Shown: in pieces, positions 15,531-40,371 of the stretch
Layout of the letters: each line of letters opens with the position of its first letter
Position numbering within the stretch: the stretch's first letter is position 1
Source of the DNA: Candidatus Aenigmatarchaeota archaeon
Lineage (GTDB): Archaea; Aenigmatarchaeota; Aenigmatarchaeia; GW2011-AR5; JACRMX01
Reading direction: 5' to 3'
Length of the DNA stretch: 49,906 nt
Assembly (NCBI GenBank): GCA_016219485.1
Contig: JACRMX010000003.1
Span: forward strand, 1 to 49,906
The notes under the pieces: model-generated
Database searches by the model: none
Told to the model about the DNA's origin: nothing
Seen by the model: only the letters and a program-made list of their open reading frames with translations
Program-made: the position numbers and the translations under genes

Positions 15531-15578
15531 TTGTCCAGTAAAAGATAATTTATATAGAACCCGCGCTATTTATTTATT

Positions 15579-17288
15579 ATGCGCAGTGAACAAACGCCTA
15601 TGCTTAAAAAAATAAAATCCATGCGCGGCGTTCTTTACAGAAAAATCATGGAAAGAAGGAAGCCGCCTGAGCCTGCTGCAGAAAAATCAAGGGCAGGCAC
15701 AATGCTTGAAATTATGAGAAAAGGCCATGAAAGAAAGCAGGCTAAAAAGTCGAAAAAAACCAGGCGCGTTTACCCAAAATTCAGGGTAGAAGAACGCGAA
15801 AAGTTTATACTCTCCTCGTGGAACAAAAGCAGGCCAATGATATATCCGCTCATAAAGCCCTATGCGTACACCAATATACGATGGAACCCTGCGGAAAACG
15901 CGGTTGTTTATAATCTGATTGAGCCCAACCTGACGCCAAAAGAATCAGAAATGCTTCATAAAATCAAAGAAGGGCTTGTTCAGGTGATAAACGTAAGCCT
16001 TGACAAAGTAAAGAAATCCGGGGAAATGATGGGTTTTCTTGAGGAAAGCGTCCAGAGCCTGCTGGATGACTATGGCTATGAGCTCGGTGATGACCAGTAC
16101 CTGAAAATAATGTACTATGTATACAGGGATTATACAGGGCTGAACGAAATAGAGCCTCTGCTGAATGACCCGTACATAGAAGACATTTCATGCGATGGCG
16201 TAGAAACGCCTATATTTGTGGTGCATCAAAAACTCGGCTCGCTGAAAACAAACATAGTGTTTGAAGAGGACAAAAAGCTGAAGGAATTTGTCGTAAAGCT
16301 TGCTGAGCGTTGCGACCGCTACATAAGCTACGCTGAGCCGCTGCTTGATGGCTCTCTTCCGGACGGAACAAGAGTGCAGGCTTCGCTTGCAGGCGATGTC
16401 ACAACAAGAGGCCCTACTTTTTCAATAAGAAAATTCCCTGAAAAGCCTTTTACCCCTGTGGATATGCTCAAACTTGGAACTGCTTCTCCGGAGATGCTTG
16501 CATATCTCTGGTTTGTGGTTGAAAATGGGGCAAACATTCTTATAGCTGGCGGCACAGCAACAGGAAAAACAAGCTTCCTGAATGCGATATCACTGTTCAT
16601 CAACCCTGAATCCAAGATAGTAAGCATAGAAGACACGAGGGAGCTGAACCTGCCGCATGAAAACTGGGTGCCAGGCGTTTCAAGAATAGGATTTGTTGGT
16701 ACGAAGGTTGGTGAGGTAAGCATGTATGACCTGCTCAGGGAAAGCTTCAGGCAGAACCCGGATTACCTTATAGTAGGAGAAGTCAGGGGCAGGGAAGCTT
16801 CTGTAATGTTTCAGGGAATGGCATCAGGGCATATCAGCATATCAACCATGCACGCAGGCGATGTTGATGACGTCATTAAAAGGCTTATAACAAGGCCAAT
16901 AAGCCTGACACCTTCGCTCATAGAAGTTCTTGATATAGTAATCCTGATGGTCCACGCCAGGGAAAAGGGGAAATCAGCAAGAAGGGTCAAAAAAATAGTT
17001 GAAATTGAAAGCGTCTCTGAAAAGGGGGAGATACGCTCGCATGACATTTTCAACTGGAACCCTGTATCAGACAGCTTTGAATATTCGGGCGATTCAAAAG
17101 TCCTGAAAAAGATGTCTGAAGAAAAGGGTATTTCAATGGAGGGCATAATCAAAGTGATAGATGAAAGAAAGGATGTTCTCACATGGCTTGTCCAGCAGGA
17201 CCATAAAGACTGGAAAGAGGTTGTGAGGCATATGATAGAATACATCAATAAACCGGAAAAAATGATGGAAAAAATAAGAGGCTCCTGA
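15579..17288 (+). CDS. Type IV pilus/archaellum-type secretion ATPase (FlaI/PilB/VirB11 superfamily)
   Basis: Walker A is IAGGTATGKTSFLNA, Walker B region is PDYLIVGEVRG, and there is a His-box-like ISTMHAGD. The N-terminal domain has the YNLIEPNLTP pattern of FlaI-like proteins. Confidence 0.85.
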   Translation: MRSEQTPMLKKIKSMRGVLYRKIMERRKPPEPAAEKSRAGTMLEIMRKGHERKQAKKSKKTRRVYPKFRVEEREKFILSSWNKSRPMIYPLIKPYAYTNIRWNPAENAVVYNLIEPNLTPKESEMLHKIKEGLVQVINVSLDKVKKSGEMMGFLEESVQSLLDDYGYELGDDQYLKIMYYVYRDYTGLNEIEPLLNDPYIEDISCDGVETPIFVVHQKLGSLKTNIVFEEDKKLKEFVVKLAERCDRYISYAEPLLDGSLPDGTRVQASLAGDVTTRGPTFSIRKFPEKPFTPVDMLKLGTASPEMLAYLWFVVENGANILIAGGTATGKTSFLNAISLFINPESKIVSIEDTRELNLPHENWVPGVSRIGFVGTKVGEVSMYDLLRESFRQNPDYLIVGEVRGREASVMFQGMASGHISISTMHAGDVDDVIKRLITRPISLTPSLIEVLDIVILMVHAREKGKSARRVKKIVEIESVSEKGEIRSHDIFNWNPVSDSFEYSGDSKVLKKMSEEKGISMEGIIKVIDERKDVLTWLVQQDHKDWKEVVRHMIEYINKPEKMMEKIRGS

Positions 17289-18158
17289 ATGTACAAAAAA
17301 ATGGTAAGGCGGTTTTCCAGATTTGGGCTGAAATACTTTTCAAACTACATGAGCCCGCTCAAGGAGGAAATAAAGCAATCAGACATAGGCACTGTGTATG
17401 AAATTTATGTCGGAAAAATGTTTTTCTTTTCCTTGATCTCCTCTATCCTTATATTTATTTACGCTATTGCTATCTTCACGCTTATCGGCAGGTTTAGCCT
17501 GCTTATCTCTTCAGTCTCCGGCCTGCTGATGGCTGTGATATCATTTTTTGCGATACTGACTATTTTCCACTCATACCCGTTCCATCTCTCAGCCAACAAA
17601 AAATTGAGCATAGATTCCAACCTGCCTTTTGCGATGAATCACGCAGCAGCTATCGCAGCAAGCGGCGCACCGCCTTCTGTCTTATTCAGGCTGCTCATGG
17701 CAGTGCCTGAATACGGACAGATTTCAAAAGAGTCCGGCAAAATAATAAGAAACATAACAGTTTTTGGCATGGACACAGTCTCTGCGATAAGGGATGTTGC
17801 TGACAGGACGCCGTCAACCGAGTTTCGCCAGTACCTTTATGGAATAATTTCAACCATAGAAACCGGCGGCGACCTGAAATCTTATCTGGAGGGCACTGCA
17901 AAAGATGCGCTGTTCGCTTACGAGCTTAAGAGGGAGAGATTTTTGAATACATTAACCACATATGCTGATTTTTATACCAGTGTACTTATAGCAGCGCCTC
18001 TGTTTTTCGTATCCATTTTATCGATGATGTCACTCGTAGGAGGCCAGGTACTTGGCATGGACATAACAACTGCAATGAGACTGGGCATATATCTGGTAAT
18101 TCCACTGCTGAATATAGGGTTCATTTTATTCGTGCACTATACCCAACCTTCGGTGTAA
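17289..18158 (+). CDS. TadC/FlaJ-like polytopic membrane platform protein (T2SS-F domain)
   Basis: Immediately follows the ATPase. Has an N-terminal TM pair, a cytoplasmic helical domain and C-terminal TMs, which is the typical architecture. Confidence 0.65.
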   Translation: MYKKMVRRFSRFGLKYFSNYMSPLKEEIKQSDIGTVYEIYVGKMFFFSLISSILIFIYAIAIFTLIGRFSLLISSVSGLLMAVISFFAILTIFHSYPFHLSANKKLSIDSNLPFAMNHAAAIAASGAPPSVLFRLLMAVPEYGQISKESGKIIRNITVFGMDTVSAIRDVADRTPSTEFRQYLYGIISTIETGGDLKSYLEGTAKDALFAYELKRERFLNTLTTYADFYTSVLIAAPLFFVSILSMMSLVGGQVLGMDITTAMRLGIYLVIPLLNIGFILFVHYTQPSV

Positions 18159-18161
18159 AAA

Positions 18162-18950
18162 ATGAAAATGAGAACAATTACGCTTTTGAGCATTGCTGCG
18201 GGAAGCATTATATTTATAATAAACTACCGGTTTTTTCAGCACTACGAGCATATTTTCATGGCTTTAAACATAGTGGCAATACTGATAGCGCTGGTACTTC
18301 CGCTGGGAATGAAGTATGAGCAGTTCAGCAGGATTAAAAAGATTGAAACGCTTTTCCCTATTTTTCTGAGGGACATAACAGATAATATCAAAAGCGGCAT
18401 GACCCTGCCGCAGGCGATAAGGGCGTCAACATCAAACAACTATGGCGTGCTTACGAATCATGTCAAGGAGCTGAGCGCAAAGATAGAATGGGGCATATCA
18501 TTTGAAAATGCCCTGAACAATTTTGCAGAAAGGGTGGGAAGCAACGTTATAAAAAGGACTGTGCAGTCCATAATAGAAGCGCACGAGTCAGGCGGCACCA
18601 TTGACAGCGTACTTGAAGTTGTTGCTTCTTCTGTGCAGGAAATAGAAAAAATAAACAAAAAGAGGGCAACAAGAATCTATTCCCAGATGCTGAACGGCTA
18701 TTTCATATACTTCATATTTCTCGGTGTAATGTATGCCATGACACATTTTCTGCTGCCAGCGTTTCAGTTCGCGGGGTCGCAGGCAGGGATACAGGAAATA
18801 TTCAACGAAATGTTCAGAAACCTTGTCGTGATTCAGGGTATTTTCGCAGGCCTGGCAATAGGCAAAATGGCTGAAGGCACTATAACAGCAGGGTTCAAAC
18901 ACTCGTTCTTTCTTGTTGTAATGGGATATTCTGTGTTAACGCTGTTGTGA
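18162..18950 (+). CDS. Second TadB/TadC/FlaJ-like membrane platform protein
   Basis: Same architecture as the preceding gene and 3 nt downstream of it. The soluble domain has a GMTLPQAIRA motif similar to T2SS-F. Confidence 0.65.
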   Translation: MKMRTITLLSIAAGSIIFIINYRFFQHYEHIFMALNIVAILIALVLPLGMKYEQFSRIKKIETLFPIFLRDITDNIKSGMTLPQAIRASTSNNYGVLTNHVKELSAKIEWGISFENALNNFAERVGSNVIKRTVQSIIEAHESGGTIDSVLEVVASSVQEIEKINKKRATRIYSQMLNGYFIYFIFLGVMYAMTHFLLPAFQFAGSQAGIQEIFNEMFRNLVVIQGIFAGLAIGKMAEGTITAGFKHSFFLVVMGYSVLTLL

Positions 18951-19034
18951 CCTGAGCTTTAAATAGCGTGAGAAATAATAGTATATCATTGATAATCACT
19001 TAAGTGATTATCATATAAATGATTAAATGATTCT

Positions 19035-19640
19035 ATGGATCATGATGCATGTGAGGGTGTAATAGAAAAATGGCTCGTTGAAAAAGGCTATGCGTGCTTT
19101 AACAATGCATCGATAGGTGGAAAATTTCCTGATATTGTAGCCTTGAAGGATGGGAAACTGATAGCAGTAGAAGTTAAGAACAATGCTCTTGAGATTCCCG
19201 TTGCATTGGGGCAGTGCTTATTCTATCTGGTCGAGGCAAATGAAGCATACATAGCTATACCCTATCAAGAACACGCTCTTATTTCTGATGGTACATTGGA
19301 GGTGTTGAAATCAAACAGCATAGGATTACTGGGATGCAGCAAAAGTGATGTTAAAATAATTTTGAAGGGGGATTTTAAAAGAAAAAATAATTCTGCGTTT
19401 ATTGATTCGCTACGCAACCGAACGCAAAAAAACAGGACAAAAATAAAAAATAGCCAAGAATTTATGAAAAAAATTAAAAGGGCACTATTAAAACAACCAA
19501 TGACCGTGGAAGAAATAAGCAGATGCTTCAATATAAACAGAGCCACTGCTTCCAAGTACCTTGCTGTCATGGAAATGGGTGGATTAATCAAATGCAGGAT
19601 GATTGGAAATGCAAAGCTGTTTTCGGTGGTGAAGAAATGA
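19035..19640 (+). CDS. PD-(D/E)xK nuclease-fold domain fused to a C-terminal winged-HTH
   Basis: The N-terminal part has PDIVAL...IAVEVK (D...ExK). The C-terminal part has TVEEISRCFNINRATASKYLAVMEMGGLI, an ArsR/MarR-like wHTH. Confidence 0.55.
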   Translation: MDHDACEGVIEKWLVEKGYACFNNASIGGKFPDIVALKDGKLIAVEVKNNALEIPVALGQCLFYLVEANEAYIAIPYQEHALISDGTLEVLKSNSIGLLGCSKSDVKIILKGDFKRKNNSAFIDSLRNRTQKNRTKIKNSQEFMKKIKRALLKQPMTVEEISRCFNINRATASKYLAVMEMGGLIKCRMIGNAKLFSVVKK

Positions 19641-19647
19641 AAACTGA

Positions 19648-19881
19648 GAGTTTTGAAAAACCATCAGCTCGTGGACAACTGAATAGGTATGAGAAAAAGT
19701 TAGAAACTTTTTCTATGTTGGGCTATGCCCGACACATGGAAATCCTATGGATTTCCAATGTACATGGAAAAGGCTGTGCCTTTTCCAATGTTTTGTCAGA
19801 ACGTTTTTTTTCTGCTTTCCCCTCGATATTCAGGAAGAAAGAGAAAAAACCGATTTTAATAAAGAGTTTTTCAAAGTCCTC
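19648..19881. mobile_element. MITE-like member of the hairpin family with terminal inverted repeats
   Basis: The left end is GAGTTTTGAAAAACC. The reverse complement of the right end is GAGGACTTTGAAAAAC. It has the same architecture as 37487-37728 (TIR, variable hairpins, big TTTTTTCTGCTTTCCC hairpin, TIR). Confidence 0.7.
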
Positions 19882-22210
19882 AATCTTTATTATTATAATT
19901 TTAATGCTGGTGCTGCTAAGCGGGTGCATAGAGACAGGGCATCCGATAGTAGAAATAGACGTAAAGTATGGAAAACACAAAATATATGGCGAAAATAACA
20001 ACGTAGTTGCTACCTATGAAATTAAAAAGGGTAAAAACGGAGACGATGTAGAAATATACGCAGAGAATTATGGTCATGTCAAAATAAACGGGATGAAAGG
20101 AAATCCTAAAAAAATGCATGTACAAGCAGGGCTTGCTGATTTTAATACACCAATAATAGCAGTCAACGAATCTGTGACATTTGAAAAAGCCGAGATAACT
20201 CTGATGAAAACAGGGTTTGTAAACAAAATATTTTATTGTTCCGGATGGAATATGGAACAATTTAGTTGTTCAGAATGGGTAAAAACCAACCTAAGTCTTG
20301 TTGCCAATAGCACGCACATTGTTTTCACTGTAGACCATTTCACAGCCTATGCCGGCGGTGTTGGTTACGAGTCAAACCTGACTGTATGGGATGATAGCGA
20401 TGAAAAAGCTGTAGGCGAGAACCAGAATGTTTATTTCTATGCAAACTTCACTAATGCGACGTCTGGTAAACCGATAAATGGAACAGGTGTGAACTGTTCG
20501 ATTGCATTCGGTGAACAAAAAGAAATGCGATGGAATGCCACCTCTTTGTTGCACGAATACAACACGTCGTTCTCTGCCCCAGGAACATTTAGCTGGAATG
20601 TTACGTGCAATGGAACATCTTTGGGTTATGATTTTTTGAATACCACTGATACCGTCCTGATATTGGACACAACCAACCCTGTTGTAAATATACAGCTGCC
20701 GCTGAATGCAACTAATATGACAACTCAGGGCATAAATTTTACAGCAACAGATAACGTAGCTGTAGACAAATGCTGGTATTCACTGGGTGCTGGAAATACA
20801 AGCCTGTCAAATTGCGCAAATATTTCTTCTATAACAGGCGAGCAGCAGGGCTTCAACAGGCTGCGTGTCTATGCAAATGATACAACTGGTAACATAGGCA
20901 TGAACGAAATTAACTATACACTAGATTCCAAGGGCCCTGTAATAAAAGATTTGACTGAAATGCCAACAGATCCAGCAGAGTATTTAGCATCACAATTCTA
21001 CGAATTCAATGCAACAATAACAGATGCGCAGAGGGCAGTCAGCAGCGTGTGGATTGAATGGAATGGCACAAACTACACCAGCATCTATAACACCGGAAGC
21101 ATATACTCTTTCAACAGGTCTAATCTTCCCATTGCATCACATAGTTATAAATGGTATGCAAATGACAGCCTTGGAAATGTAAATGTAACTGCGTTACAAA
21201 CATATATAGTAAGGGATACTACGCCACCTTTTGTTGCCATACAGCTGCCGCAGAATAGATCATATACAAACATGACGATGAATTTCACAGCTGTTGACCA
21301 GGCTTTTGGAGTATGCTGGTATTCGCTGAACAGGGGCACAACAAACACCAGCCTGCCCAGCTGCAGCAATCTTTCATCAATCGGAACAGAAGGTTTCAAT
21401 GAGCTGTGGTTATGGGCAAATGATACGACAGGAAATGAAAACGTCGCTAAAATAAATTTCACAAAAGACCTCACTGGGCCATTTATATTGCTGGGAAATC
21501 CTGCTAACAACAGCTGGTCAGCCTCATCGTCAAATACATTCTACTATACACCATATGATAATAGTACCATAGCAAATTGTACGCTTGTTATTGATAGCGC
21601 ATATAACCAATCGAATGCAAGTGCAGTTTCAAAAGGCACTGCAAATACCATGGCAGCAGGGCTGGCAGACGGAACGCACCTATGGACAGTAAACTGTACA
21701 GATGAGCTTGGAAATCAGGGCACAAACACGACAGCAAAAACCATCAATATAGATACGATAACACCAGTCGTGCAGATAGTGTACCCGCAAAACGCCACTT
21801 ATACGACTACATCCTTGCATCTGAACTTCACCTTCACGGAGCAGAACAGAGACAGCTGCTGGTACAGCCTTAACAATGGTGCCAATACGACCATCACCGG
21901 ATGCGCCAATGGCACAGCAATAACAGCTATGCATGGGCATAACAACATAACGCTATGGATGAATGATTCTGCCGGCAACACAGGCTCTGGCAGCGTTTTT
22001 TTTGTGCAAAATAATGCTCCAGGCATAGTTAACCAGAATGCGACATCTGGCGCAACAGGCGTGATAAGTAATGCAACAAACCCGACCAATAACAATACAT
22101 TTGTGAGGTTTACAGCAGAATATTCAGACGCGGACAGCGATAATGCAACAGTTTACATATGCAAACAGGATGATGGCAACCGCTATGGGTGCGGCCAAAT
22201 GGAACAATAA
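19736..22210 (+). CDS. Giant surface adhesin-like glycoprotein, N-terminal part (reading frame broken at about 22195)
   Basis: Signal or lipobox-like segment KKEKKPILIKSFSKSSIFIIIILMLVLLSGC, followed by three approximately 90-aa Ig-like modules (DTTNPVV...CWYSL...ANDTTGN). N-x-S/T sequons are very dense. The start is uncertain (ATG at 19637, 19715, 19736 or 19904). The ORF-track start 19523 overlaps the upstream gene and is rejected. Confidence 0.7.
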   Translation: MEILWISNVHGKGCAFSNVLSERFFSAFPSIFRKKEKKPILIKSFSKSSIFIIIILMLVLLSGCIETGHPIVEIDVKYGKHKIYGENNNVVATYEIKKGKNGDDVEIYAENYGHVKINGMKGNPKKMHVQAGLADFNTPIIAVNESVTFEKAEITLMKTGFVNKIFYCSGWNMEQFSCSEWVKTNLSLVANSTHIVFTVDHFTAYAGGVGYESNLTVWDDSDEKAVGENQNVYFYANFTNATSGKPINGTGVNCSIAFGEQKEMRWNATSLLHEYNTSFSAPGTFSWNVTCNGTSLGYDFLNTTDTVLILDTTNPVVNIQLPLNATNMTTQGINFTATDNVAVDKCWYSLGAGNTSLSNCANISSITGEQQGFNRLRVYANDTTGNIGMNEINYTLDSKGPVIKDLTEMPTDPAEYLASQFYEFNATITDAQRAVSSVWIEWNGTNYTSIYNTGSIYSFNRSNLPIASHSYKWYANDSLGNVNVTALQTYIVRDTTPPFVAIQLPQNRSYTNMTMNFTAVDQAFGVCWYSLNRGTTNTSLPSCSNLSSIGTEGFNELWLWANDTTGNENVAKINFTKDLTGPFILLGNPANNSWSASSSNTFYYTPYDNSTIANCTLVIDSAYNQSNASAVSKGTANTMAAGLADGTHLWTVNCTDELGNQGTNTTAKTINIDTITPVVQIVYPQNATYTTTSLHLNFTFTEQNRDSCWYSLNNGANTTITGCANGTAITAMHGHNNITLWMNDSAGNTGSGSVFFVQNNAPGIVNQNATSGATGVISNATNPTNNNTFVRFTAEYSDADSDNATVYICKQDDGNRYGCGQMEQ

Positions 22211-25200
22211 CAGATGACAGCAGCGATACAGTAACGCTGTCATACAAATGGTACAAAAACAGCGCAGAAATAGCTGGCCAAACACAGTGGAATCTTACAG
22301 GCTCATCGTTCAATCATTATGACAACATAACCTGCGAAATAATGCCAACAGACAACCATAATTATGCTGGTGCTGCCAGGAACTCAACAACCATCCAGAT
22401 TAAAAACTCTCCGCCTGTTGTGTCCATAGGCAACACATTTACAGACTATACAACACAGCACGCATTCAATGTAACAGCAACTGCAACAGACGCAGACGGG
22501 CTAGCTGATATAACGTCGTGTAAAATCTGGCGAAGAACCGGCAGTGACGCTTACGTTTCTGAAGCAGGTGAAATTTCCAGCGGCAACTGTATTGCAAAAA
22601 TAGACACGACTGATAGCGATGGCAGCGGTGCATTCGCTGTAAATGACAACATCAGCATAATGGTAGAATTTTTTGATGCATCAGACAGTACAAACACAAC
22701 TGCCTCTTTGCATGCTATACCAAACCAGCCACCTTCTGCCAGTAACGGCGATGTTTTACCAAGCAGCCCGAATACAACACAAACACTGACATGCTCATAT
22801 ACGTTTTCTGATCTAGAAGGCGATGCTGATAACTCAACATTCAAATGGTATAAAGACAATGTTGTCCAGGCAGGATTAAATTCAGCAACAGTTTCTGGCA
22901 GCTATACAACAGAGGGCGAGACATGGAAATGCGAAATAGCTCCTATTGACCAGTATGGCGGCACAGGCAGTGCTATAAACTCAACAAACGAAACAATAGT
23001 AAACAGCCCGCCAACCATATCCATAGGCAACACGTTCACAGACTACACAACCGAGCACGCATTCAATGTTACAGCAACTGCTTCTGATGCAGACGGACTG
23101 ACGGACATAACGTCATGCAAAGTGTGGCGAAGAACAGGCAGCGATGCCCATGTTTCCGAGTCTGGCATATACATCTCAGCAACTGGAAACTGTACAGCAA
23201 AGATTAATACGTCAGACAGCGATGGCGGCGGAACATTTGCTGTATACGATAGTGTGGATATAAAAGTGGAATTCTTTGATGAAGCTGAGAGCGTGAATAC
23301 ATCCTCATCATCGAATAGTATACCAAACAGGGCGCCTGAAACCAGTACGCCAGCACTCGTGCCTGCTACAGTATACAAAAATACAGCAAACATAACATGT
23401 GCAAACACAACAACAACAGATGCAGACAGCGATAACGTAACATTTCATTACAAATGGTTCAACAATAGCGCTGTGATAACAGGCGCAATAACCAATTATC
23501 TTACCAATGACAGCTATGCGCACTTCAATAATATAACATGCCAGATAATGCCTGATGACAGCTACATCAATGGCAGTGCCAGAAATGTATCTGTTGTGAT
23601 AACAAACACGCCGCCAGCTGTTGCCTCGTCAGAGATTGTGCCTGCTGTGGCTTACGAGACCACTGTTTTGAACTGTACCAATGGCAGCGTAAGCGATATT
23701 GACAGCGATGTAGTAACGCTGCTGTACAAATGGTACAAGAATAGTGCTGTGATATCAGGCCAGACACAATGGAATCTGACTGGAACGTACTTTAACCATT
23801 TTGACAATGTGACATGCCAAATAACGCCTTATGATGGATATGACAGCGGAACGCCTGTCAATGCAACTGCTGTGCAGATACTGAACACAGTGCCAGCAAT
23901 AAGCAATGTTGCTGTTACGCCAAGCATAGCGTATACAAATGACACGCTGACATGTAGTGGAACATTTGCAGATGTGGACAGCGATACAGAGGCTGGCTCA
24001 ACATTCAAATGGTACAGGAATGGAACTGTAATTGACGGCCAGACGAACAGGCAGCTTAATGCTTATGTCATACGCAAGCATGAAAATGTAAGTTGTGAGT
24101 ACAGGCCAAAGGACGGTTATGATTTTGGCAGTGCTGCGAACAGCACTATGGTAACTATACTGAACGCCAAGCCTATTGTATCGTCTGTTTCAATTCTGCC
24201 TTCGCCTGCCTACGAGAATTCTGTGTTAAATTGTACAAATGGCACAGTAACAGACAGGGATAATGATACGATAACGCTATTCTACAAGTGGTACAGGAAC
24301 GGAAGCGAAATAGGACAGGTCGCGTGGAACTTGACAGGCACATATTTCAACCACTTCGATAATGTAACATGCCAGATTACACCATACGATAATGACGAGA
24401 ATGGGACAGCTATAAATTCCAGCACCCTGCAAATATCAAACACACCGCCAACGCTGGATTCAGCATCTATTGTTCCAGCTACTGCTTACGAAACTTCTGT
24501 TTTGAACTGTACCAATGGCTCGACGAGTGACGTGGATGCTGACAGCGTAACGCTGCTGTACAAATGGTACAAAAACAGCATTGTCATAAGCGGCCAGACA
24601 CAATGGAATCTGACTGGAACGTACTTTAATCATTTTGACAATGTGACATGCCAAATAACGCCTTATGATGGCTATGACAGCGGAACGCCTGTCAATGCAT
24701 CAGCTGTGTCAATACTTAATACACCGCCTGTGATAGCTAACGTTGCTGTTACGCCAAGCATTGCGTATACAAATGATACGCTGACATGCGACGGGACGTT
24801 TACAGATGTGGACAGCGATGCAGAGGCTGGCTCGATGTTCAAATGGTACAGGAACGGAACTGTAATTGACGGCCAGACGAACAGGCAGCTTAGCGCTTAT
24901 GTCATACGCAAGCATGAAAATGTAAGCTGTGAGTACAGGCCAAAGGACGGTTATGATTTTGGCAGTGCTGCGAACAGCACTATGGTAACTATACTAAATG
25001 CTAAGCCCATCACTACGTTAACAAATATAACGCCAAAAATTGCGTATGAAACCTCGGTGCTAAACTGCACAAATGGTACAATAATAGACAGGGATAATGA
25101 TACGATAACGCTATTCTACAAGTGGTACAGGAACGGAAGCGAAATAGGACAGGTCGCGTGGAATTTGACAGGCACATATTTCAACCACTTCGACAACATC

Positions 25201-26418
25201 ACATGCCAGATTATGCCGTACGATACAGAAGAAAATGGAACATCTGCAAATGATACAATAGAAATACAAAACAGCCTGCCTGTCATTTATTTCATAAATG
25301 TAACCCCGTCTGCAGACGGGTGGGGCGAAACCTTCACGTTCATTACGAATGTCAGCGATGTAGACAATGATAGCGTAAACATATCGCTCTGGCTTTCATC
25401 AAATAATGCAACATGGTCATATGACCGGACAACAAACTGCACATCATGCCTTCAGAAAACTAAAATAAATATTACAAAGACTGATTTCACATGTTCCAAC
25501 ATAGGTCAAAACTTCTTCAGAATTAATGCAACAGATGAATATGGTGCTACAAATATCTCATGGAGTGCAAACTTTACACTGCTCAAAAGCACGCTAAATC
25601 AGGGTAATATGGTAATAACACAGGGCGACGGCACACGCGTAGGTACAAGAGGCACTGAAAGTACGCACATAACTGTATCCATATATGATTCAAAAAGAAA
25701 TATATTTGTAACATCAGGCGTACGAGGCAGAATATGGGTAATGAAGAATAGTACGCTGTGGAACACCGGACAGCCGTGCACAACAACCAGCAATGGCAAT
25801 TGTACCATAACATTCGACCCGGACTGCACCTATCAGGGTGATGCAAGAGAATTCAGGGGCGGAATATACAATGACACGTGTTATTTTGATGTTAATTCCA
25901 CAACAGGCCATATAATAATAGACCCTGGCGTGGAATGCATGCATGAAATAACCTTCGTACTTGAGCTGAATATAAGCGGAACAGAAGATGACGTATTCAG
26001 AACATCGGCAGGAACTGGTGATGCCTTTTTCATATCAGGGGAAACCACCCAGTACTATATATGCGTAGAAGATGCTGCAATAGAAAAAATTCCTGTATTC
26101 GGCATCGTATTCTCCGGGGATGATTTTAGTACGCTGAACATAAGCTCGCGTAAGATGCAAATGTCCCAGTATCAGGCAGGGAACATGTTCATAATGCCTG
26201 TAACCTATGGTGGCTGCAGCGCAATACAGAGAAAAATAGACCTGATAAAAAACAACAGGTTTCTTACGCAGCCATATGCGTGGTTTAATGACAATACATA
26301 CCCGCTGGAGATTTCGCTTGACTATCCGGTAAATATAAGAGGCGAAGAGTCGCTGAAGGGAAGCTTCATATTGACACTTGAAAAAAATGGAAGCACGATA
26401 GACGCCAAAGTGAGGTGA
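22189..26418 (+). CDS. Giant surface adhesin-like glycoprotein, C-terminal part (1,409 aa)
   Basis: At least nine modules share the C-x-NG-x3-D-x-D-x-D-x2-T-x2-YKWY-x-N...DN(V/I)(T/S)C pattern, and sequons are dense. It continues the module that begins in the upstream frame. Confidence 0.8.
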   Translation: MRPNGTITDDSSDTVTLSYKWYKNSAEIAGQTQWNLTGSSFNHYDNITCEIMPTDNHNYAGAARNSTTIQIKNSPPVVSIGNTFTDYTTQHAFNVTATATDADGLADITSCKIWRRTGSDAYVSEAGEISSGNCIAKIDTTDSDGSGAFAVNDNISIMVEFFDASDSTNTTASLHAIPNQPPSASNGDVLPSSPNTTQTLTCSYTFSDLEGDADNSTFKWYKDNVVQAGLNSATVSGSYTTEGETWKCEIAPIDQYGGTGSAINSTNETIVNSPPTISIGNTFTDYTTEHAFNVTATASDADGLTDITSCKVWRRTGSDAHVSESGIYISATGNCTAKINTSDSDGGGTFAVYDSVDIKVEFFDEAESVNTSSSSNSIPNRAPETSTPALVPATVYKNTANITCANTTTTDADSDNVTFHYKWFNNSAVITGAITNYLTNDSYAHFNNITCQIMPDDSYINGSARNVSVVITNTPPAVASSEIVPAVAYETTVLNCTNGSVSDIDSDVVTLLYKWYKNSAVISGQTQWNLTGTYFNHFDNVTCQITPYDGYDSGTPVNATAVQILNTVPAISNVAVTPSIAYTNDTLTCSGTFADVDSDTEAGSTFKWYRNGTVIDGQTNRQLNAYVIRKHENVSCEYRPKDGYDFGSAANSTMVTILNAKPIVSSVSILPSPAYENSVLNCTNGTVTDRDNDTITLFYKWYRNGSEIGQVAWNLTGTYFNHFDNVTCQITPYDNDENGTAINSSTLQISNTPPTLDSASIVPATAYETSVLNCTNGSTSDVDADSVTLLYKWYKNSIVISGQTQWNLTGTYFNHFDNVTCQITPYDGYDSGTPVNASAVSILNTPPVIANVAVTPSIAYTNDTLTCDGTFTDVDSDAEAGSMFKWYRNGTVIDGQTNRQLSAYVIRKHENVSCEYRPKDGYDFGSAANSTMVTILNAKPITTLTNITPKIAYETSVLNCTNGTIIDRDNDTITLFYKWYRNGSEIGQVAWNLTGTYFNHFDNITCQIMPYDTEENGTSANDTIEIQNSLPVIYFINVTPSADGWGETFTFITNVSDVDNDSVNISLWLSSNNATWSYDRTTNCTSCLQKTKINITKTDFTCSNIGQNFFRINATDEYGATNISWSANFTLLKSTLNQGNMVITQGDGTRVGTRGTESTHITVSIYDSKRNIFVTSGVRGRIWVMKNSTLWNTGQPCTTTSNGNCTITFDPDCTYQGDAREFRGGIYNDTCYFDVNSTTGHIIIDPGVECMHEITFVLELNISGTEDDVFRTSAGTGDAFFISGETTQYYICVEDAAIEKIPVFGIVFSGDDFSTLNISSRKMQMSQYQAGNMFIMPVTYGGCSAIQRKIDLIKNNRFLTQPYAWFNDNTYPLEISLDYPVNIRGEESLKGSFILTLEKNGSTIDAKVR
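23611..25278 (+). repeat. Tandem duplication of an 834-bp (278-aa, three-module) unit inside the adhesin gene
   Basis: Unit 1 is 23611-24444 and unit 2 is 24445-25278. Long runs are identical, for example ggccagacgaacaggcagctta and gtacaggccaaaggacggttatgattttggcagtgctgcgaacagcactatggtaactatact. Confidence 0.85.
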
Positions 26419-26427
26419 AACAAGAAC

Positions 26428-27135
26428 ATGAATCCTATAATTGGTGCTGTAGTAGCAATAGCGGTAGTTGTGGCTTCAACTGTAATGGTAATGAATACGA
26501 TAACTGATGTTGTCAGGGAAGGCAGCGATGCCAGCAAATTCAACATGGCAAAGCAGCTTATGTCATCCGTGGATATGAATGTAAGGGAGCTTATGTACGA
26601 ATCAACAGGAGCCAAGAGGGTCATCAAGCTTGAAGCCAGAGACGGCATGTTTATAGTGTCTGAAAAAGAGGATAAAATAAAATACCAGCTCAGCCCTGAT
26701 ATAAAAATATACGAGCCAGGCACAAGATTCAGGGAGGGAAACATGATAATATCAAGCGGGCCTTTCATGGATGCATACGAATCTGACATAGACGGAAACA
26801 ATGAATCAGACCTCGTGCTTGAGAATGACGTTGTGCTGTTCGCAATAAGAAAAATAGGAAATGCAACGCATTTTGATGAGCTCAATACCACGACTATTAT
26901 AGCGCTCATAAGGAACAAAAAAACAGGCACAGACGCTGTGCCAAAAAGCGGCATATTCATAGACGGAACCAGCTCATATGGAAACGGGTATACAGAGCTG
27001 GTGAGAAGTGGCGATGCGCTTATGTCATCTGGCGTACGTGTTGTTATGAATTCAACATATGACTATGAAGCTGTATTTACGCTTGGCGCAGGCAGAGACT
27101 TCATAGAAATGGAGGTAAGACATATATCTGGGTGA
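26428..27135 (+). CDS. Pilin_N-type pilin-like protein (paralog of 29899-30588)
   Basis: The N-terminus is MNPIIGAVVAIAVVVASTVMV. The C-terminal YTELVRSGDAL...FTLGAGRDFIEMEVRHI matches YTELVSQGRSL...YTLYAGADFLDIEIRNV in the paralog. Confidence 0.65.
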   Translation: MNPIIGAVVAIAVVVASTVMVMNTITDVVREGSDASKFNMAKQLMSSVDMNVRELMYESTGAKRVIKLEARDGMFIVSEKEDKIKYQLSPDIKIYEPGTRFREGNMIISSGPFMDAYESDIDGNNESDLVLENDVVLFAIRKIGNATHFDELNTTTIIALIRNKKTGTDAVPKSGIFIDGTSSYGNGYTELVRSGDALMSSGVRVVMNSTYDYEAVFTLGAGRDFIEMEVRHISG

Positions 27136-27139
27136 TATA

Positions 27140-27688
27140 ATGAAAAAAATTATTTTACTGCTAATGCTTCTGCTGCCTGTTGCCGTCAGCGCGCACACGG
27201 TGACTTTAACTGTAAAATTCAACATATCTGACAGCGACACTGTTTACATAAACAGCTCATCTTACGGAATAAACCAGAGCGCAAACCAGTCATGGGCCAA
27301 CCTTACAAAAAAGTATATAGGATCTTCCTATGATGGCTACAGCGCAGGCATGGTGTTTACAGGCGAAGACTTTATTCAGGTTTCTCTGGACAGCGAACGT
27401 ATATTCAGAATGAAGCAGGGAGATGAAAATAAATTTTCCCTGTTCTTTACAAAAACGGACTGGTCATTTGCGGATAACAGGATTTTGTCAGCCGGAAGGC
27501 TCATGCGCACAACTTTTGGGCAGGCACTTTCGCTCATAAACCCGTCATCTGTTTTTCTGCAGCTTCACTACAGCTATATTGACATAATAAACGATGAGCA
27601 GTGGGGAAGCGGGTCCCATGAGATTCTGATAAAGAATACTGGAAGACTGAATGGAAAAAATACGATAAAAATAGAAAAGGTGAGGTAA
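27140..27688 (+). CDS. Secreted protein with a Sec-type signal peptide
   Basis: The N-terminus is MKKIILLLMLLLPVAVSA-HT. No other motif. Lies within the pilus operon. Confidence 0.55.
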   Translation: MKKIILLLMLLLPVAVSAHTVTLTVKFNISDSDTVYINSSSYGINQSANQSWANLTKKYIGSSYDGYSAGMVFTGEDFIQVSLDSERIFRMKQGDENKFSLFFTKTDWSFADNRILSAGRLMRTTFGQALSLINPSSVFLQLHYSYIDIINDEQWGSGSHEILIKNTGRLNGKNTIKIEKVR

Positions 27689-28122
27689 TGAAAGGGCAAT
27701 CATCATTAATAGGGCATACAATAGCATTTGCGCTAAGCATAGGACTGATATCAGCGCTTGTTGTGGCGCTTTCTTCAGTGCAGACTAACTACAGGGAATT
27801 CACCATAGACCACGAAATAGGAAACGTATGTAACATGGTAAAAAATTCCGTTGAAAAAATATACTGGCCATCCTCCTATATGCCAATCAATACAACAATG
27901 GGCAGAATTGTAATTGAACTTCCTGAAAAAATCGGCGATATCGGATATGAGGCGCGGTTTGATAATACGTCGCTGAAAGTTGAGATGAATGAGCTTGCGA
28001 TAAACAGGTCATGTGAAATGGGCTTCAATATAAGTTTCAGTGGAAGGACTGACGGAGGGAGAACCGTCATAAAATGGCTTGCAGAATCTAAAAATAAAAT
28101 CATAATGGAAAGGGAAATCTGA
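27688..28122 (+). CDS. Minor pilin-like protein (class III signal peptide)
   Basis: MKG-QSSLIGHTIAFALSIGLISALVVAL. Its ATGA start overlaps the previous stop. Confidence 0.6.
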   Translation: MKGQSSLIGHTIAFALSIGLISALVVALSSVQTNYREFTIDHEIGNVCNMVKNSVEKIYWPSSYMPINTTMGRIVIELPEKIGDIGYEARFDNTSLKVEMNELAINRSCEMGFNISFSGRTDGGRTVIKWLAESKNKIIMEREI

Positions 28123-28913
28123 TGGCAACCCAGATAGACTTCATAGTTGCTGCAGGAGTTTTCATACTCATAACAGGGTTTGTGCTTTTTTTTACAACAG
28201 ACTATCTGGAAACGATAAGAACATCAGTCAAAATAGCTGAACTCCGCTCTGATGCAATGAGCCTGCTGTCGCTTGCTGACAGGGACTTTGAATATGCTCC
28301 GCAGACAACGAGAATCGGGCTGCATTCGTATGCCTACAGGTTATGGATATTGGTAAATAACACGCAGGAGAATCTCGTCAATCAGAGCCTCGCGCCAATA
28401 AGGCTGGAAAATGAGCTTGTGACATTCAGCTATGCACAGCTTGGATTTGGCAGCGTAGACTACAACTCAACAGCTGTGTATGAAAATGGCACGCATGAAA
28501 TAGCGAGGCAGGTTTCAGGCAATACCGTAAGCTTTTCAACAGCTATTGATGCCAGCGAAGAAAAATGGTTTCTTGTCTATTTTGATGACGACTCCAATTT
28601 CACAAGAAGCTCGGATAATGTATCAGGAAGCAGCAATATCACGGAAAAAATTTTCCCTGTTTATAAAATCAGCCTTGTACAGTACAAAAAAATTCAGACA
28701 GTTGAATCCCTTGGCTATGAGAGCCTGAGGAATACAACAGGCGCGAAAAATTTCAGAATAACAATTACAGACATTTCGGATAGCCAGAATATTCTGGATT
28801 TCGGCGGCACGGTACCAAAGGAAGCCAACGTCGTGGCGCTCGACAGGCGTGTCATTTTCCAGAACGAGACTGGTGGAATAAGAAGCGGAGATCTGATAGT
28901 AAAAATATGGTGA
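28122..28913 (+). CDS. Pilin-like or pilus-associated protein with an N-terminal hydrophobic helix
   Basis: MATQIDFIVAAGVFILITGFVLFF. Translationally coupled to the previous gene (TGATG). Confidence 0.5.
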   Translation: MATQIDFIVAAGVFILITGFVLFFTTDYLETIRTSVKIAELRSDAMSLLSLADRDFEYAPQTTRIGLHSYAYRLWILVNNTQENLVNQSLAPIRLENELVTFSYAQLGFGSVDYNSTAVYENGTHEIARQVSGNTVSFSTAIDASEEKWFLVYFDDDSNFTRSSDNVSGSSNITEKIFPVYKISLVQYKKIQTVESLGYESLRNTTGAKNFRITITDISDSQNILDFGGTVPKEANVVALDRRVIFQNETGGIRSGDLIVKIW

Positions 28914-28917
28914 TAGC

Positions 28918-29304
28918 ATGAAAGGGTATATTTACACACTTGAGGTCCTGATAGCAGCATCGCTCATATTCGTAACGCTTGCCCTCATCTATAAAACTCC
29001 TCCAATAAAGCCGGAGATGCAGCTGAGCACCATGGAAAAAACAGGCTCGAATGCGCTGGATTACTTTTACGAAAAAGGCGATATGAGAATATGGGCATAC
29101 TATAACAATGAAAGCATATTCGAGTCAGAGCTCAGAAATGTAATACCAAGGTCGGTTGACTTCGAGATTTCGCTAAGCCGCGAATGCGACTCCAAAAATG
29201 TCCCTGAAAATAGGACCGTTATAGTTGTTACCAGATATATCTCCGGGTTGAACGACAAGTTGGATATCAAAAAAGTATGCCTGTATATGTGGGAGGGCTA
29301 CTGA
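28918..29304 (+). CDS. Minor pilin-like protein (class III signal peptide)
   Basis: MKG-YIYTLEVLIAASLIFVTLALIY. Confidence 0.6.
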   Translation: MKGYIYTLEVLIAASLIFVTLALIYKTPPIKPEMQLSTMEKTGSNALDYFYEKGDMRIWAYYNNESIFESELRNVIPRSVDFEISLSRECDSKNVPENRTVIVVTRYISGLNDKLDIKKVCLYMWEGY

Positions 29305-29897
29305 TGAAAGGCCAGGTCTTTCTTATAGGCGCTATTATAATACTCATAGCCATAGTTCTGCTGAAGAACCTGTACAGCATATACGACACGCTGGAAGAAA
29401 AGAGGTGGGTTGAAAGCGGTGATATTGAAAAGAAAATAAAAAATATAATCAGGGAGTACGGCTATTCTGCCGGCATAGCAACAGTCCAGAAAAGTGTGAA
29501 TGCAGAATACCTGAATGAGCTGTCTGTTTTTCTGGGAAATGATACGGACATAGAGAGCCTGTACATTTTTGCCTATGCCAATGGAACGCGGTATGATGTT
29601 ACTGTCGGAAATTTTCTTGGAGAAAGAATAAACGCAACTGTAAATGCAACAAACTCAACGCCGGCATCATATGCATTCGGGGTGCTGGAAGACAAAACCA
29701 ATTTAACAGCCAGCTTTGTTTCCGGGATAAATGGCAGCATAACGCTGACTCTGAGCTACACAGCTGAAAATAAAATAGTGAATGAAAATATCATCCTTGC
29801 CATAGCAAATAATTCTATGGTGTCATTCTTTGATGTAAAACTAAAAGAGAATGACCTGTGGCTAAGAAGCAAAGATGTGTTCAACAGGACGTGGTAG
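29304..29897 (+). CDS. Minor pilin-like protein (class III signal peptide)
   Basis: The start was reset to ATG 29304 (ATGA overlap). The N-terminus is MKG-QVFLIGAIIILIAIVLL. Confidence 0.6.
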   Translation: MKGQVFLIGAIIILIAIVLLKNLYSIYDTLEEKRWVESGDIEKKIKNIIREYGYSAGIATVQKSVNAEYLNELSVFLGNDTDIESLYIFAYANGTRYDVTVGNFLGERINATVNATNSTPASYAFGVLEDKTNLTASFVSGINGSITLTLSYTAENKIVNENIILAIANNSMVSFFDVKLKENDLWLRSKDVFNRTW

Positions 29898-29898
29898 C

Positions 29899-30588
29899 AT
29901 GGATTCGCTAATATCAACGGTTGTGGTAATTCTCATCGCCGTTACATCATTTTCCATCGTACTGACAGCCGGCGTTCCTCTTATAGAAAAATCTCTGGAC
30001 AGTATAAAATTTTCAGAAGCTGAAAAAATCTTCAGCTACATAGACAACTGCATAAACGAAGTGGCCAACGAAGGTCCTGGGGCATCGCGCATACTGAAGT
30101 TCAGGACAGATGCCAAAAACTTCAGGGTTTCATCACAGGACAATTCCATAGAAGTTGAAATGGGAACAGCTGCAAAGCTGATGGATTATTATTCCCGGAG
30201 CATCCATGGAAACATCATACAGGTATCTGGAAATGACATGAGCTGCACAAACACGACGAGCGCCATAGCAATGGGGAACAGTTATATTTCAGTAATTCTC
30301 AGGCATACGCCACAGGCTAGCCCCATGGCTGTCATTGATACATCCGGCATAATAGCAAATATTACTGAAAAAAGATCCGGGCGTTCCATCGCTTTTGCAG
30401 ATTCATCCATAGCCATTGATGAGAATGAAGAGACGAGCAGTGGCGTAGGCTATACTGAACTTGTGTCACAAGGCAGGTCTTTATGCAGGGCCCATGCCTT
30501 TGTCAATTCAACGGTTAAATACGACGTTTACTACACTTTATATGCGGGCGCGGATTTTTTAGATATAGAAATAAGAAATGTGGTGTGA
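29899..30588 (+). CDS. Pilin_N-type pilin-like protein (paralog of 26428-27135)
   Basis: The start was reset to ATG 29899. The N-terminus is MDSLISTVVVILIAVTSFSIVL. Internal and C-terminal similarity to the 26428 gene. Confidence 0.65.
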   Translation: MDSLISTVVVILIAVTSFSIVLTAGVPLIEKSLDSIKFSEAEKIFSYIDNCINEVANEGPGASRILKFRTDAKNFRVSSQDNSIEVEMGTAAKLMDYYSRSIHGNIIQVSGNDMSCTNTTSAIAMGNSYISVILRHTPQASPMAVIDTSGIIANITEKRSGRSIAFADSSIAIDENEETSSGVGYTELVSQGRSLCRAHAFVNSTVKYDVYYTLYAGADFLDIEIRNVV

Positions 30589-30592
30589 ATCT

Positions 30593-40320: not shown

Positions 40321-40371
40321 GTTTTTAGGTATCCTGCTTCAGAAATAATTATTAGTGAACTACTCCCAGCT

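Follow-up and report, generated by a model that had tools for sequence, protein, structure and literature searches.

The closest described relatives of the locus analysed here are archaeal type IV pili (T4P) of clade 2, whose plan includes two tadC genes, KaiC (a KaiC-like ATPase is frequent), large PilY-like proteins and a minor pilin of 250-550 amino acids (aa; arCOG02911), with PilA sometimes encoded in trans (Makarova, Koonin & Albers 2016, PMC4858521). In the same study, PilY-like DUF2341 proteins were proposed in the Epd-pilus loci of Methanococcus. For DPANN archaea, Fig. 2A of Makarova, Wolf & Koonin (2019, PMC6393860) presents T4P 'dark matter' islands with unrecognisable pilins, and imaging of ultrasmall groundwater cells, of organisms other than the one studied here, has revealed pili-like appendages (PMC7906910). 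The DNA analysed was a chromosomal stretch of 49,906 nucleotides (nt) from a DPANN archaeon, Candidatus Aenigmatarchaeota archaeon (assembly GCA_016219485.1, contig JACRMX010000003.1), hereafter the window, in which positions 15579-30588 hold genes for a pilus-type ATPase, two TadC/FlaJ-like platform proteins, a nuclease-like DNA-binding protein, a giant adhesin and seven small proteins (g1 to g7). This locus combines parts of known kinds in a new way, and its function is probably attachment to other cells.

The cluster consisted of 13 co-directional open reading frames (ORFs), equivalent to 12 genes when the split adhesin is counted once, and not of the 14 ORFs and 13 genes counted in the initial annotation of this DNA. 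The genes were separated by gaps or overlaps of up to 9 nt, with the sole exception of 84 nt upstream of the 201-aa gene. Pfam searches, structural models and coordinates confirmed this tight clustering and the assignment of the pilus-type ATPase, the two TadC/FlaJ-like genes, the PD-(D/E)xK-winged helix-turn-helix (wHTH) protein and the adhesin; the reading as a pilus-like machine linked, in a DPANN archaeon, to a glycosylated adhesin of giant size also stood, as did a plausible role in cell or host attachment. The proposal of a single conserved 15-kb operon gave way, as comparison with related loci (numbered with an L below) revealed two separable modules and a second promoter-like region that contains a 24-nt palindrome. 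It was also too strong to say that this is not a described archaeal pilus type, given the clade-2 plan (PMC4858521) and the DPANN islands drawn in Fig. 2A of PMC6393860. In our preferred reading, which we consider probable, the locus encodes an adhesive T4P of the euryarchaeal 'clade 2' kind, made of two juxtaposed modules, in which a minor-pilin-like tip set presents a PilY1-like adhesin.

The first module carries the assembly motor, with the following features:

15549-15556, plus strand: TATA-box-like motif TTTATATA, 22 nt upstream of the ATPase start codon, read from the sequence
15579-17288, plus strand: secretion/assembly ATPase of the PilB/FlaI/GspE family, non-archaellum type, 569 aa (Pfam T2SSE, E 2.6e-34)
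17289-18158, plus strand: TadC/FlaJ platform protein equivalent to the N-terminal half, 289 aa (one T2SSF domain; ArlJ model positions 11-248 of 555)
18162-18950, plus strand: TadC/FlaJ platform protein equivalent to the C-terminal half, 262 aa (one T2SSF domain; ArlJ model positions 265-482 of 555)

As the two proteins with a single T2SSF domain mapped to separate halves of ArlJ/FlaJ, the platform is split. The motif TTTATATA may be the promoter of the ATPase-TadC-TadC module and would give a leaderless or short-leader transcript. By its best matches, the ATPase grouped with archaeal non-archaellum pilus ATPases, in agreement with the pilus assignment made initially. Its best solved relative was GspE of Archaeoglobus fulgidus (2OAP, 375 bits, compared with 251 bits for FlaI, 4II7), and many of its homologs carried a PilB3_N domain. 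The exact sequence of the ATPase had no entry in the sequence records searched. The homologs numbered thousands at ~55-65% identity, and most of those with a named source belonged to Candidatus Aenigmarchaeota/Aenigmatarchaeota. In this best solved relative and the PilB3_N domain of homologs, and in the combination of a VirB11/PilB-family ATPase with two tadC-like genes, the module resembles clade-2 loci such as those of PilB3/PilB4 in Haloferax volcanii and of afGspE in A. fulgidus. Scores against the Sulfolobales Bas/Ups equivalogs were below their cutoffs (BasE, 219 bits against 1000; BasF, 36 against 1300; UpsF, 33-40 against 400).

A degenerate archaellum remnant, in which FlaI and FlaJ would be left from a lost motility apparatus, might be suggested by the name 'flagellar protein FlaI' given to ATPase homologs and by the FlaG/FlaI/FlaJ proteins listed for Aenigmarchaeota (Li et al. 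2021). This origin is scarcely credible, as the ATPase reached 377 bits with the NCBIfam FlaI equivalog model, whose cutoff is 550, and afGspE outscored FlaI. Moreover, no archaellin (FlaB) or FlaC-H accessory family was found in the Pfam-scanned ORFs of the window, and FlaJ is split as in clade-2 pili. Inteins occur among relatives of this motor: the pilus ATPase of L016 (1306-4461, 1051 aa) holds an insert with Intein_splicing and LAGLIDADG domains, and the ATPase ORFs of L014 and L020 are similarly long (~1050-1060 aa).

The second module extends from a palindrome to the end of the cluster and contains the following features (the arrow marks the cleavage position of a signal, and the start codons of g6 and g7 were set from orthologs):

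18990-19013, no strand: perfect 24-nt palindrome TGATAATCACTTAAGTGATTATCA, followed by the TATA-like box ATATAAAT and then by the start of the 201-aa gene
19035-19640, plus strand: NucHTH, cytoplasmic protein of 201 aa with an N-terminal PD-(D/E)xK (Hjc/XisH-like) domain and a C-terminal ArsR/SmtB-type wHTH domain (Pfam, AlphaFold 2, Foldseek)
19637-22210, plus strand: N-terminal ORF of the adhesin, 857 aa, with a lipobox-like signal (IFIIIILMLVLLSG↓C) and immunoglobulin (Ig)-like modules (81% identity to a continuous ORF in L001)
22189-26418, plus strand: C-terminal ORF of the adhesin, 1409 aa, in another frame, with ~92-aa Ig-like repeats, an 834-nt super-repeat and 75 N-x-S/T sequons
about 25930-26415, plus strand: conserved C-terminal domain of the adhesin, ~160 aa, the most conserved part of the protein
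26428-27135, plus strand: g1, pilin-like and DUF7289-like, 235 aa, paralog of g7 (shape of the AlphaFold 2 model; weak but recurrent DUF7289 matches)
27140-27688, plus strand: g2, protein with a Sec signal (MKKIILLLMLLLPVAVSA↓H), 182 aa, which repeats the adhesin C-terminal domain as a free-standing protein
27688-28122, plus strand: g3, pilin-like with a class III signal (MKG↓Q), 144 aa (DUF7266, 29.0 bits, above the cutoff of 27.6)
28122-28913, plus strand: g4, pilin-like and DUF7287-like, 263 aa, N-terminus MA↓TQIDFIVAAGVF (DUF7287, 23.7 bits; cutoff 27)
28918-29304, plus strand: g5, pilin-like with a class III signal (MKG↓YIYTLE), 128 aa (motif kept in four orthologs)
29304-29897, plus strand: g6, pilin-like with a class III signal (MKG↓QVFLIG), 197 aa (KG↓Q and a hydrophobic stretch)
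29899-30588, plus strand: g7, DUF7289-like paralog of g1, 229 aa (no K-G leader)

The whole layout was identical in the closest relative, GCA_053536615.1 (80% identity for the ATPase), whose assembly breaks within the adhesin gene to give contigs L001 and L004. In more distant relatives, the cluster did not behave as a single conserved unit and comprised at least two separable modules. The order S26e-ATPase-TadC-TadC was kept in L001, L003, L013, L014, L016, L018 and L020, whatever came after it; L021, a locus cut at its 5' end, retained ATPase-TadC-TadC, and the gene for the N-terminal-half TadC also adjoined the ATPase gene in L001, L003 and L013-L021. Between the ATPase and TadC genes of six GTDB species, archaeon GW2011_AR5 among them, lay a gene for a KaiC-family ATPase. 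The window has no KaiC-like ATPase; its presence in the related type-A loci (L013, L014, L016, L018, L020 and L021) is a further likeness to clade 2.

The connection between adhesin and pilus was followed through g1. Twelve GTDB loci were found with an alignment of eight g1/g7 sequences, and in 10 of these a gene ending in the adhesin C-terminal domain was located directly upstream of g1, the other two loci being cut at that point. In type-A loci, that gene lay ~200-350 nt (170-380) downstream of TadC2 and encoded a protein of ~305 aa formed by an N-terminal wHTH domain, one transmembrane (TM) helix and the adhesin C-terminal domain (hhalign against the domain in the window, 100%, E 9e-43); g1 came next. 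The unit of C-terminal domain and g1 appeared in three settings: straight after ATPase-KaiC-TadC-TadC in six species; beside PilA/Pilin_N-type pilins and with the motor absent (divergent in L006, downstream in L015, on both sides in L019); and merged with the motor in the window and in L001+L004. As read from gene order, these three independent arrangements tie the unit to T4P.

This linkage bears on a simpler explanation, by which motor and giant protein would be neighbours only, the latter being an S-layer-like or envelope coat protein with NucHTH as its own regulator and no mechanistic coupling to a filament. Such a situation could be expected from L003, which has the ATPase module without this adhesin, and from a cassette of NucHTH and a giant protein that recurs in 11 further loci, none of which showed an ATPase ORF on the plus strand of the retrieved upstream DNA; in addition, S-layer-like proteins have been noted in clade-2 loci (PMC4858521) and S-layer genes in Aenigmarchaeota (Li et al. 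2021). We consider it unlikely, because two distinct genomic contexts had g1 invariably downstream of the adhesin C-terminal domain, this domain is duplicated as g2 within the pilin block, and a predicted protein (P0147, see below) fuses it with a g1-like pilin module. Furthermore, the internal repeats and the LamG and CBM domains of related giant proteins suggest binding and not a lattice.

Several lines of evidence supported the pilin-like nature of the small proteins. The AlphaFold 2 model of g1 (predicted local distance difference test score, pLDDT, 84) consisted of an N-terminal helix of 54 residues (3-56) and an all-beta head, which is the classic lollipop shape of pilins. The Pfam matches were position-specific and recurrent in orthologs, namely DUF7266 for g3 (27-32 bits in the orthologs, all with KG↓Q kept), DUF7287 for g4 (above the cutoff of 27 in L004, 33.4 bits, and L019, 27.1 bits), DUF7288 for g5 (weak, with E 0.022 in the window and 0.0046 in L019) and DUF7289 for g1 and g7 (just below the cutoff, with 26.6 bits for the L019 ortholog of g7). 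No Pfam family was above threshold for g6, and a full-text literature search on DUF7266, DUF7287, DUF7288 and DUF7289 returned no articles. Matches of small proteins to these four families are a further likeness to clade-2 T4P. In the window, g3, g5 and g6 start with MKG↓Q or MKG↓Y, after which comes a run of hydrophobic residues, and leaders with K-G before Q, Y or D were kept across species for g1, g3, g5 and g6. Most g1 orthologs start with MKG↓D, the g1 of the window itself starting with MNP; for g6, KG↓Q and the hydrophobic stretch were kept in L004, L011 and L015, and the ORF start of L019, as printed, stops short of the motif.

Two internal relationships were also detected within the block, as g1 and g7 shared 30% identity (hhalign probability 99.9%) and g2 matched the C-terminus of the adhesin (hhalign 97.5%, E 5.9e-12; BLASTP E 8e-8). 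The seven genes were orthologous and colinear in the window, L004, L006/L011, L015 and L019, with 27-73% identity. The class III leaders of g3, g5 and g6, the Sec signal of g2 and the paralogy of g1 and g7 agreed with the initial annotation, and the motifs in orthologs, the fold of g1 and the four Pfam families bore out the description of the small proteins as pilin-like. The g4 ortholog of L019 (6150-7766, 538 aa) contained an inserted Laminin_G_3 domain; therefore, a pilin-like protein can itself bear a binding module.

The adhesin would total ~2,200-2,270 aa, starting at position 19637 as an ATGA overlap with the preceding stop codon, and not at 19523 as previously assigned. It contained 125 sequons, 50 of them in the N-terminal ORF, or 5.3-5.8 per 100 aa compared with 0.55 in eight housekeeping proteins of the window (~tenfold). 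The N-terminal ORF gave weak Pfam matches to Big_13 and Big_3_3, and its lipobox-like SG↓C was kept in L001 and L006. The C-terminal region was 46-70% identical in L004, L006 and L007, and the C-terminal ORF had no phmmer match among PDB sequences. The repeat families came from a separate repeat search; their divergence or length placed them beyond Tandem Repeats Finder, which returned nothing on the adhesin DNA. The repeats are rich in acidic motifs of the D-x-D-x-D type, and a calcium link with the Na+/Ca2+ exchanger encoded next to the cluster (30578-31519, plus strand) may be conceivable; the exchanger gene shares its first 11 nt with the end of g7 and is also found downstream of the g-block in L004/L005 and ~3 kb downstream in L011.

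In bacterial type IVa pili, a complex of minor pilins and PilY1, the latter a large Sec-exported non-pilin adhesin encoded beside the minor-pilin block, primes assembly and sits at the tip. The present locus likewise has a gene for a large Sec-exported non-pilin adhesin beside a block of low-abundance pilin-like genes, and the C-terminal domain is the conserved part. In contrast, no sequence or fold homology to that complex was detected; neither adhesin ORF contained DUF2341, vWA or the beta-propeller domain of PilY1 (Pfam), and DUF2341 and Laminin_G_3 were seen only in related giant proteins (P0146). The relationship is therefore an analogy and not membership.

The adhesin gene differed from that of the closest relative at two places. 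At ~22182-22198, the window was short of 226 nt that are present in L001, where the ORF runs on unbroken; as 226 is not a multiple of three, two overlapping ORFs result. The second difference was an insertion, of which further copies were detected:

19643-19883, plus strand: insertion of 241 nt (net +240 nt, in frame), similar to a miniature inverted-repeat transposable element (MITE), located after the adhesin codons ATG-AAA and absent from L001
15418-15485 (minus strand), 37634-37728 (plus strand) and 40371-40453 (plus strand): further copies of the palindromic core of the insertion, all intergenic

An imperfect 26-nt inverted repeat encloses the insertion, which shifts the conserved lipobox-like signal (…LLSG↓C) ~80 aa inward. 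Its palindromic core, TTTTTTTCT(G)CTTTCCCC…GGGGAAAGAGAAAAAA, was repeated in three intergenic regions; therefore, the insertion is a small dispersed MITE-like element. Programmed frameshifting was considered and rejected, as L001 differs by the 226 extra nt and there is no slippery site. The 44-nt frameshift junction had no match among JGI metagenome contigs. Thus, the description of a split adhesin stood as regards the two ORFs and the abundance of sequons, whereas a plain frameshift has to be replaced by a 226-nt deficit plus a net +240-nt insertion. Either the adhesin gene is probably disrupted here or the assembly is wrong, which the initial annotation had overlooked.

It had likewise overlooked the likely major pilin, encoded by one of two canonical Pilin_N-type prepilin genes of the window that lie outside the cluster:

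5757-6149, minus strand: PilA/Pilin_N-type prepilin, 130 aa, MKG↓ITPVVAVVLLLLITVAIVGF (class III motif scan; Pfam Pilin_N, weak, E 0.0011)
3627-4829, plus strand: pilin-like protein, 400 aa, …KQKG↓ITPVIAIVLLLMITIAIVGF (Pfam Pilin_N, weak, E 6.9e-4; motif scan)

The product of 5757-6149 is the likely candidate for major pilin, and that of 3627-4829 is a candidate large minor pilin; the two were 43% identical over 121 aligned residues. Both genes sit among those for a polyprenyl synthase, RNase HII and a rhomboid protein, and this neighbourhood is syntenic with the part of L006 where the adhesin and the g1-g7 block are located. A PilA-family major pilin possibly encoded in trans, together with several distinct pilin-like proteins and an associated large surface protein, is another likeness to clade-2 T4P.

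The position of these pilins is relevant to a different kind of machine, a short pseudopilus similar to that of type II secretion systems (T2SS), which would form no long fibre and would push or position the Sec-exported adhesin and g2 through the S-layer or envelope, the adhesin being lipid-anchored at its N-terminus. The signals of the adhesin and g2 are indeed Sec-type and not class III, and the lipobox-like SG↓C is conserved; the cluster itself holds several distinct pilin-like genes of the low-abundance type and none for a PilA-type pilin, and type-A loci have a single pilin-like gene beside the motor. On the other hand, PilA-type pilins flank the g-block in L006, L015 and L019 and are 9 kb away in the window, the outer-membrane secretin on which T2SS logic is based is missing from archaea, and the literature searched documents no archaeal pseudopilus secretion system. 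A pseudopilus therefore appears rather unlikely.

The 201-aa NucHTH protein was initially taken as part of the pilus gene set, and its distribution indicates otherwise. Its Pfam matches were weak (Hjc, E 7e-5; HTH_5, E 3.4e-5). In the AlphaFold 2 model (pLDDT 87.6), the N-terminal domain matched 3dnx (SPO1766), 2inb/2okf (XisH) and 4tkd (Hjc) by Foldseek with E values of 6e-6 to 5e-4, and the C-terminal domain matched wHTH proteins of the CzrA/HlyU/CadC type. Residues D33, E46 and K48 were invariant in the five sequences compared. With this modelled fold and the D...(D/E)xK motif, NucHTH belongs to the PD-(D/E)xK superfamily, catalysis being only predicted. A profile search returned ~22 full-length clusters and many relatives with the wHTH domain only. 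In all 11 further loci that keep downstream DNA (L008, L009, L010, L024, L026, L027, L029, L031, L032, L034 and L035), the NucHTH gene was followed by an ORF with a signal or TM segment that starts within 0-900 nt and encodes 873 to >2,351 aa; in most of them, this ORF overlaps the NucHTH gene or comes directly after it. The giant proteins of these loci carry Laminin_G_3 or CBM96 domains, and those of L008 and L009 had no BLASTP similarity to the adhesin of the window; therefore, the partners of NucHTH are not adhesin orthologs. NucHTH also lies directly upstream of the adhesin gene in L001. It belongs with genes for adhesins or giant surface proteins generally and is not a component of the pilus motor.

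The region upstream of NucHTH was also conserved. The palindrome TGATAATCACTTAAGTGATTATCA, present as a single copy in the window, and the box ATATAAAT were identical in L001 and L002, whereas the coding DNA flanking the gene pair was only 77-83% identical, and the half-site TGATAATCA appeared again upstream of the NucHTH homolog of L009. Judged by its sequence, the 18990-19013 palindrome with the adjacent box looks like a candidate operator and internal promoter for a dimeric wHTH protein.

The nuclease fold matched by the model, the invariant catalytic-type triad and the precedent of the giant adhesins of Nanohaloarchaeota, whose cytoplasmic restriction-endonuclease region was proposed to degrade imported DNA (PMC6642349), could fit a competence-like pilus for DNA uptake or nucleotide scavenging, in which the adhesin would bind host cells and NucHTH would process incoming DNA in the cytoplasm. 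Against such a role, which we regard as very unlikely, Pfam scans of the cluster yielded neither a ComEC/ComEA-like channel nor a DNA receptor, NucHTH accompanies giant surface-protein genes regardless of pilus genes, and the conserved palindrome that precedes it is typical of an autoregulated transcription factor. Moreover, the NucHTH position is taken in type-A loci by a bare wHTH protein without the nuclease domain. Additional small wHTH genes are found in these loci directly upstream of genes for secreted proteins of 845-1234 aa that share the N-terminal motif …PT(L/V)IDFQGKLTDNNNN….

Predicted proteins in which these domains are fused to giant surface proteins were also found. P0146 comprised NucHTH, a signal/TM segment and a protein part of 2,000 aa that contains DUF2341 and Laminin_G_3; P0147 comprised NucHTH, a class III signal (KSQKG↓VSQLIS), a g1-like domain (hhalign 99.8%), Laminin_G_3 and a domain similar to the adhesin C-terminal domain (95.4%); P0212 comprised a wHTH domain, a TM segment and a giant protein; and P0223 was a further case with NucHTH or wHTH fused N-terminally to a giant surface protein. 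All four are known as predicted proteins only, for which an artefact of gene calling or sequencing is possible.

The nearest precedent for the cassette of NucHTH and a giant protein is the SPEARE family of Nanohaloarchaeota (Hamm et al. 2019, PMC6642349), giant DPANN adhesins with LamG and other domains that are coupled across the membrane to a cytoplasmic domain of the restriction-endonuclease fold. The fused P0146 and P0147, with NucHTH, a TM or class III signal and an adhesin in this order, are similar in plan. SPEARE proteins combine a protease and a toxin-like domain with a type III restriction-enzyme region, are mostly anchored C-terminally and reach 3,000-8,500 aa. Here, in contrast, a Hjc/XisH-like nuclease domain of ~110 aa is joined to a wHTH domain, is usually encoded by a separate upstream gene and is linked to pilin-like genes; in the separate genes of this locus, no protease or ResIII match was found (Pfam).

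From the same data comes a more speculative proposal, to which we give little credence, namely that the Hjc/XisH-like nuclease with wHTH, or the bare wHTH, is an undescribed dedicated cis-partner of DPANN giant surface-protein genes with a new coupling mechanism. Some lineages would then translate the nuclease-wHTH part as the cytoplasmic N-terminus of the surface protein, before a TM signal (P0146, P0212) or a prepilin signal (P0147). In one form of this proposal, export and cleavage by prepilin peptidase or another enzyme would free the DNA-binding/nuclease domain, which would report adhesin or pilus assembly to the chromosome; the 18990-19013 palindrome would be its target. In the other, the nuclease would rearrange the repeat-rich adhesin gene, resulting in phase or antigenic variation.

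Returning to the adhesive clade-2 pilus, we infer that a filament is formed, that the adhesin docks at its tip, that NucHTH acts as regulator and that a host is bound, all from the gene content, domain and fold assignments, orthology, synteny, domain sharing and fusions that were observed or computed. Module 1 (15579-18950) would provide the motor, an afGspE/PilB-type hexameric ATPase with a split TadC/FlaJ platform, from its own TATA-like promoter. Module 2 (18990-30588) would be transcribed from the palindrome-guarded promoter to give NucHTH, the adhesin and g1-g7, with NucHTH binding the palindrome and so controlling the expression of adhesin and minor pilins. The adhesin would be a Sec-exported, possibly lipid-anchored and heavily N-glycosylated Ig-repeat protein. 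The class III leaders would be trimmed by a prepilin peptidase encoded elsewhere, after which g1 and g3-g7 may form a priming or tip complex on the platform. The conserved C-terminal domain would be the part by which the adhesin docks on this complex, and g2 would be a small free-standing paralog of that domain. The PilA-type pilin (5757-6149) would then polymerise beneath, pushing the adhesin outward to bind a host or surface.

A number of observations weigh against this adhesive pilus. The model of g1 had no Foldseek match in the PDB at E <= 0.001, and therefore the label 'pilin' rests on architecture and not on demonstrated homology to solved pilins; the canonical K/R-G cleavage motif is absent from g1, g4 and g7 of the window, and several Pfam matches of the small proteins are under the curated cutoffs. 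Type-A loci hold g1 only, without g2-g7, and thus g1-g7 possibly do not work together in a single complex. No A24 prepilin peptidase was detected in the 49.9-kb window by Pfam on the large ORFs or by tblastn with the A24 protein of L003 (only E > 4), so that tblastn and Pfam bore out the initial annotation in finding neither a prepilin peptidase nor archaellin-type genes; in L003, the A24 gene is 4 kb from that of the ATPase, and therefore the enzyme is probably encoded elsewhere in the genome. The clade of the ATPase is putative, being taken from best matches. With its lipobox-like N-terminus, the adhesin may be anchored in the membrane, a poor fit with location at the tip. Finally, the adhesin ORF is interrupted twice, by the insertion and by the 226-nt deficit, and therefore the system possibly does not work in this organism.

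The cluster is surrounded by housekeeping genes, namely those for FtsZ, GatA/GatB, ribosomal protein S26e, XPD helicase, an intein-containing topoisomerase, SerRS and a class I tRNA synthetase, and its GC content and composition equal those of the flanks and are even throughout the region. A mobile or viral origin of the cluster was considered and set aside in view of this composition, of these neighbours and of the lack of an integrase among 34 of the larger ORFs scanned with Pfam. The topoisomerase (34117-37440, minus strand, 1107 aa) carries a LAGLIDADG insert (intein) that is missing from its 711-aa ortholog in L004. The spacer between the S26e and ATPase genes is 411 nt in the window compared with 93 nt in L001, and its 15200-15480 part contains further hairpin-forming inverted repeats such as ccactagtctataggactagtgg and gccactggtctgttgaccagtgg, with no Rfam family match; an Rfam scan of the window returned zero matches.

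Compared with clade-2 T4P, the locus differs in its DPANN host, in the seven-gene pilin set bracketed by paralogs, in the adhesin of ~2,200 aa with a second, separately encoded copy of its C-terminal domain and in the nuclease-wHTH gene. The T4P islands of DPANN archaea (PMC6393860) are similar in their FlaI-type ATPase, TadC, surface proteins and several signal-peptide proteins predicted to be pilins without detectable pilin similarity; as drawn in Fig. 2A, they carry general annotation only, with no pairing of the adhesin C-terminal domain and g1, no two-module structure and no NucHTH cassette. The literature searched does not describe that pairing, nor the paralog-bracketed seven-gene block, nor the cassette of NucHTH or wHTH with a giant surface protein or the corresponding fusions.

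The pairing and fusion of NucHTH with giant surface proteins recalls SPEARE and points to a recurring link in DPANN archaea between cytoplasmic DNA-binding/nuclease domains and adhesins. DPANN archaea are believed to spend their lives attached to hosts. To the question of how these hosts are recognised and held, this locus and its relatives contribute, for one lineage, the Aenigmarchaeota, a testable parts list, made of a conserved pilus motor and a portable adhesin cassette whose C-terminal domain stays constant and invariably accompanies one particular pilin-like protein, and whose outward binding modules vary, being Ig repeats here and Laminin_G_3, CBM96 or DUF2341 in relatives. Such an organisation would explain how host-binding specificity is swapped while one presentation machine is kept.

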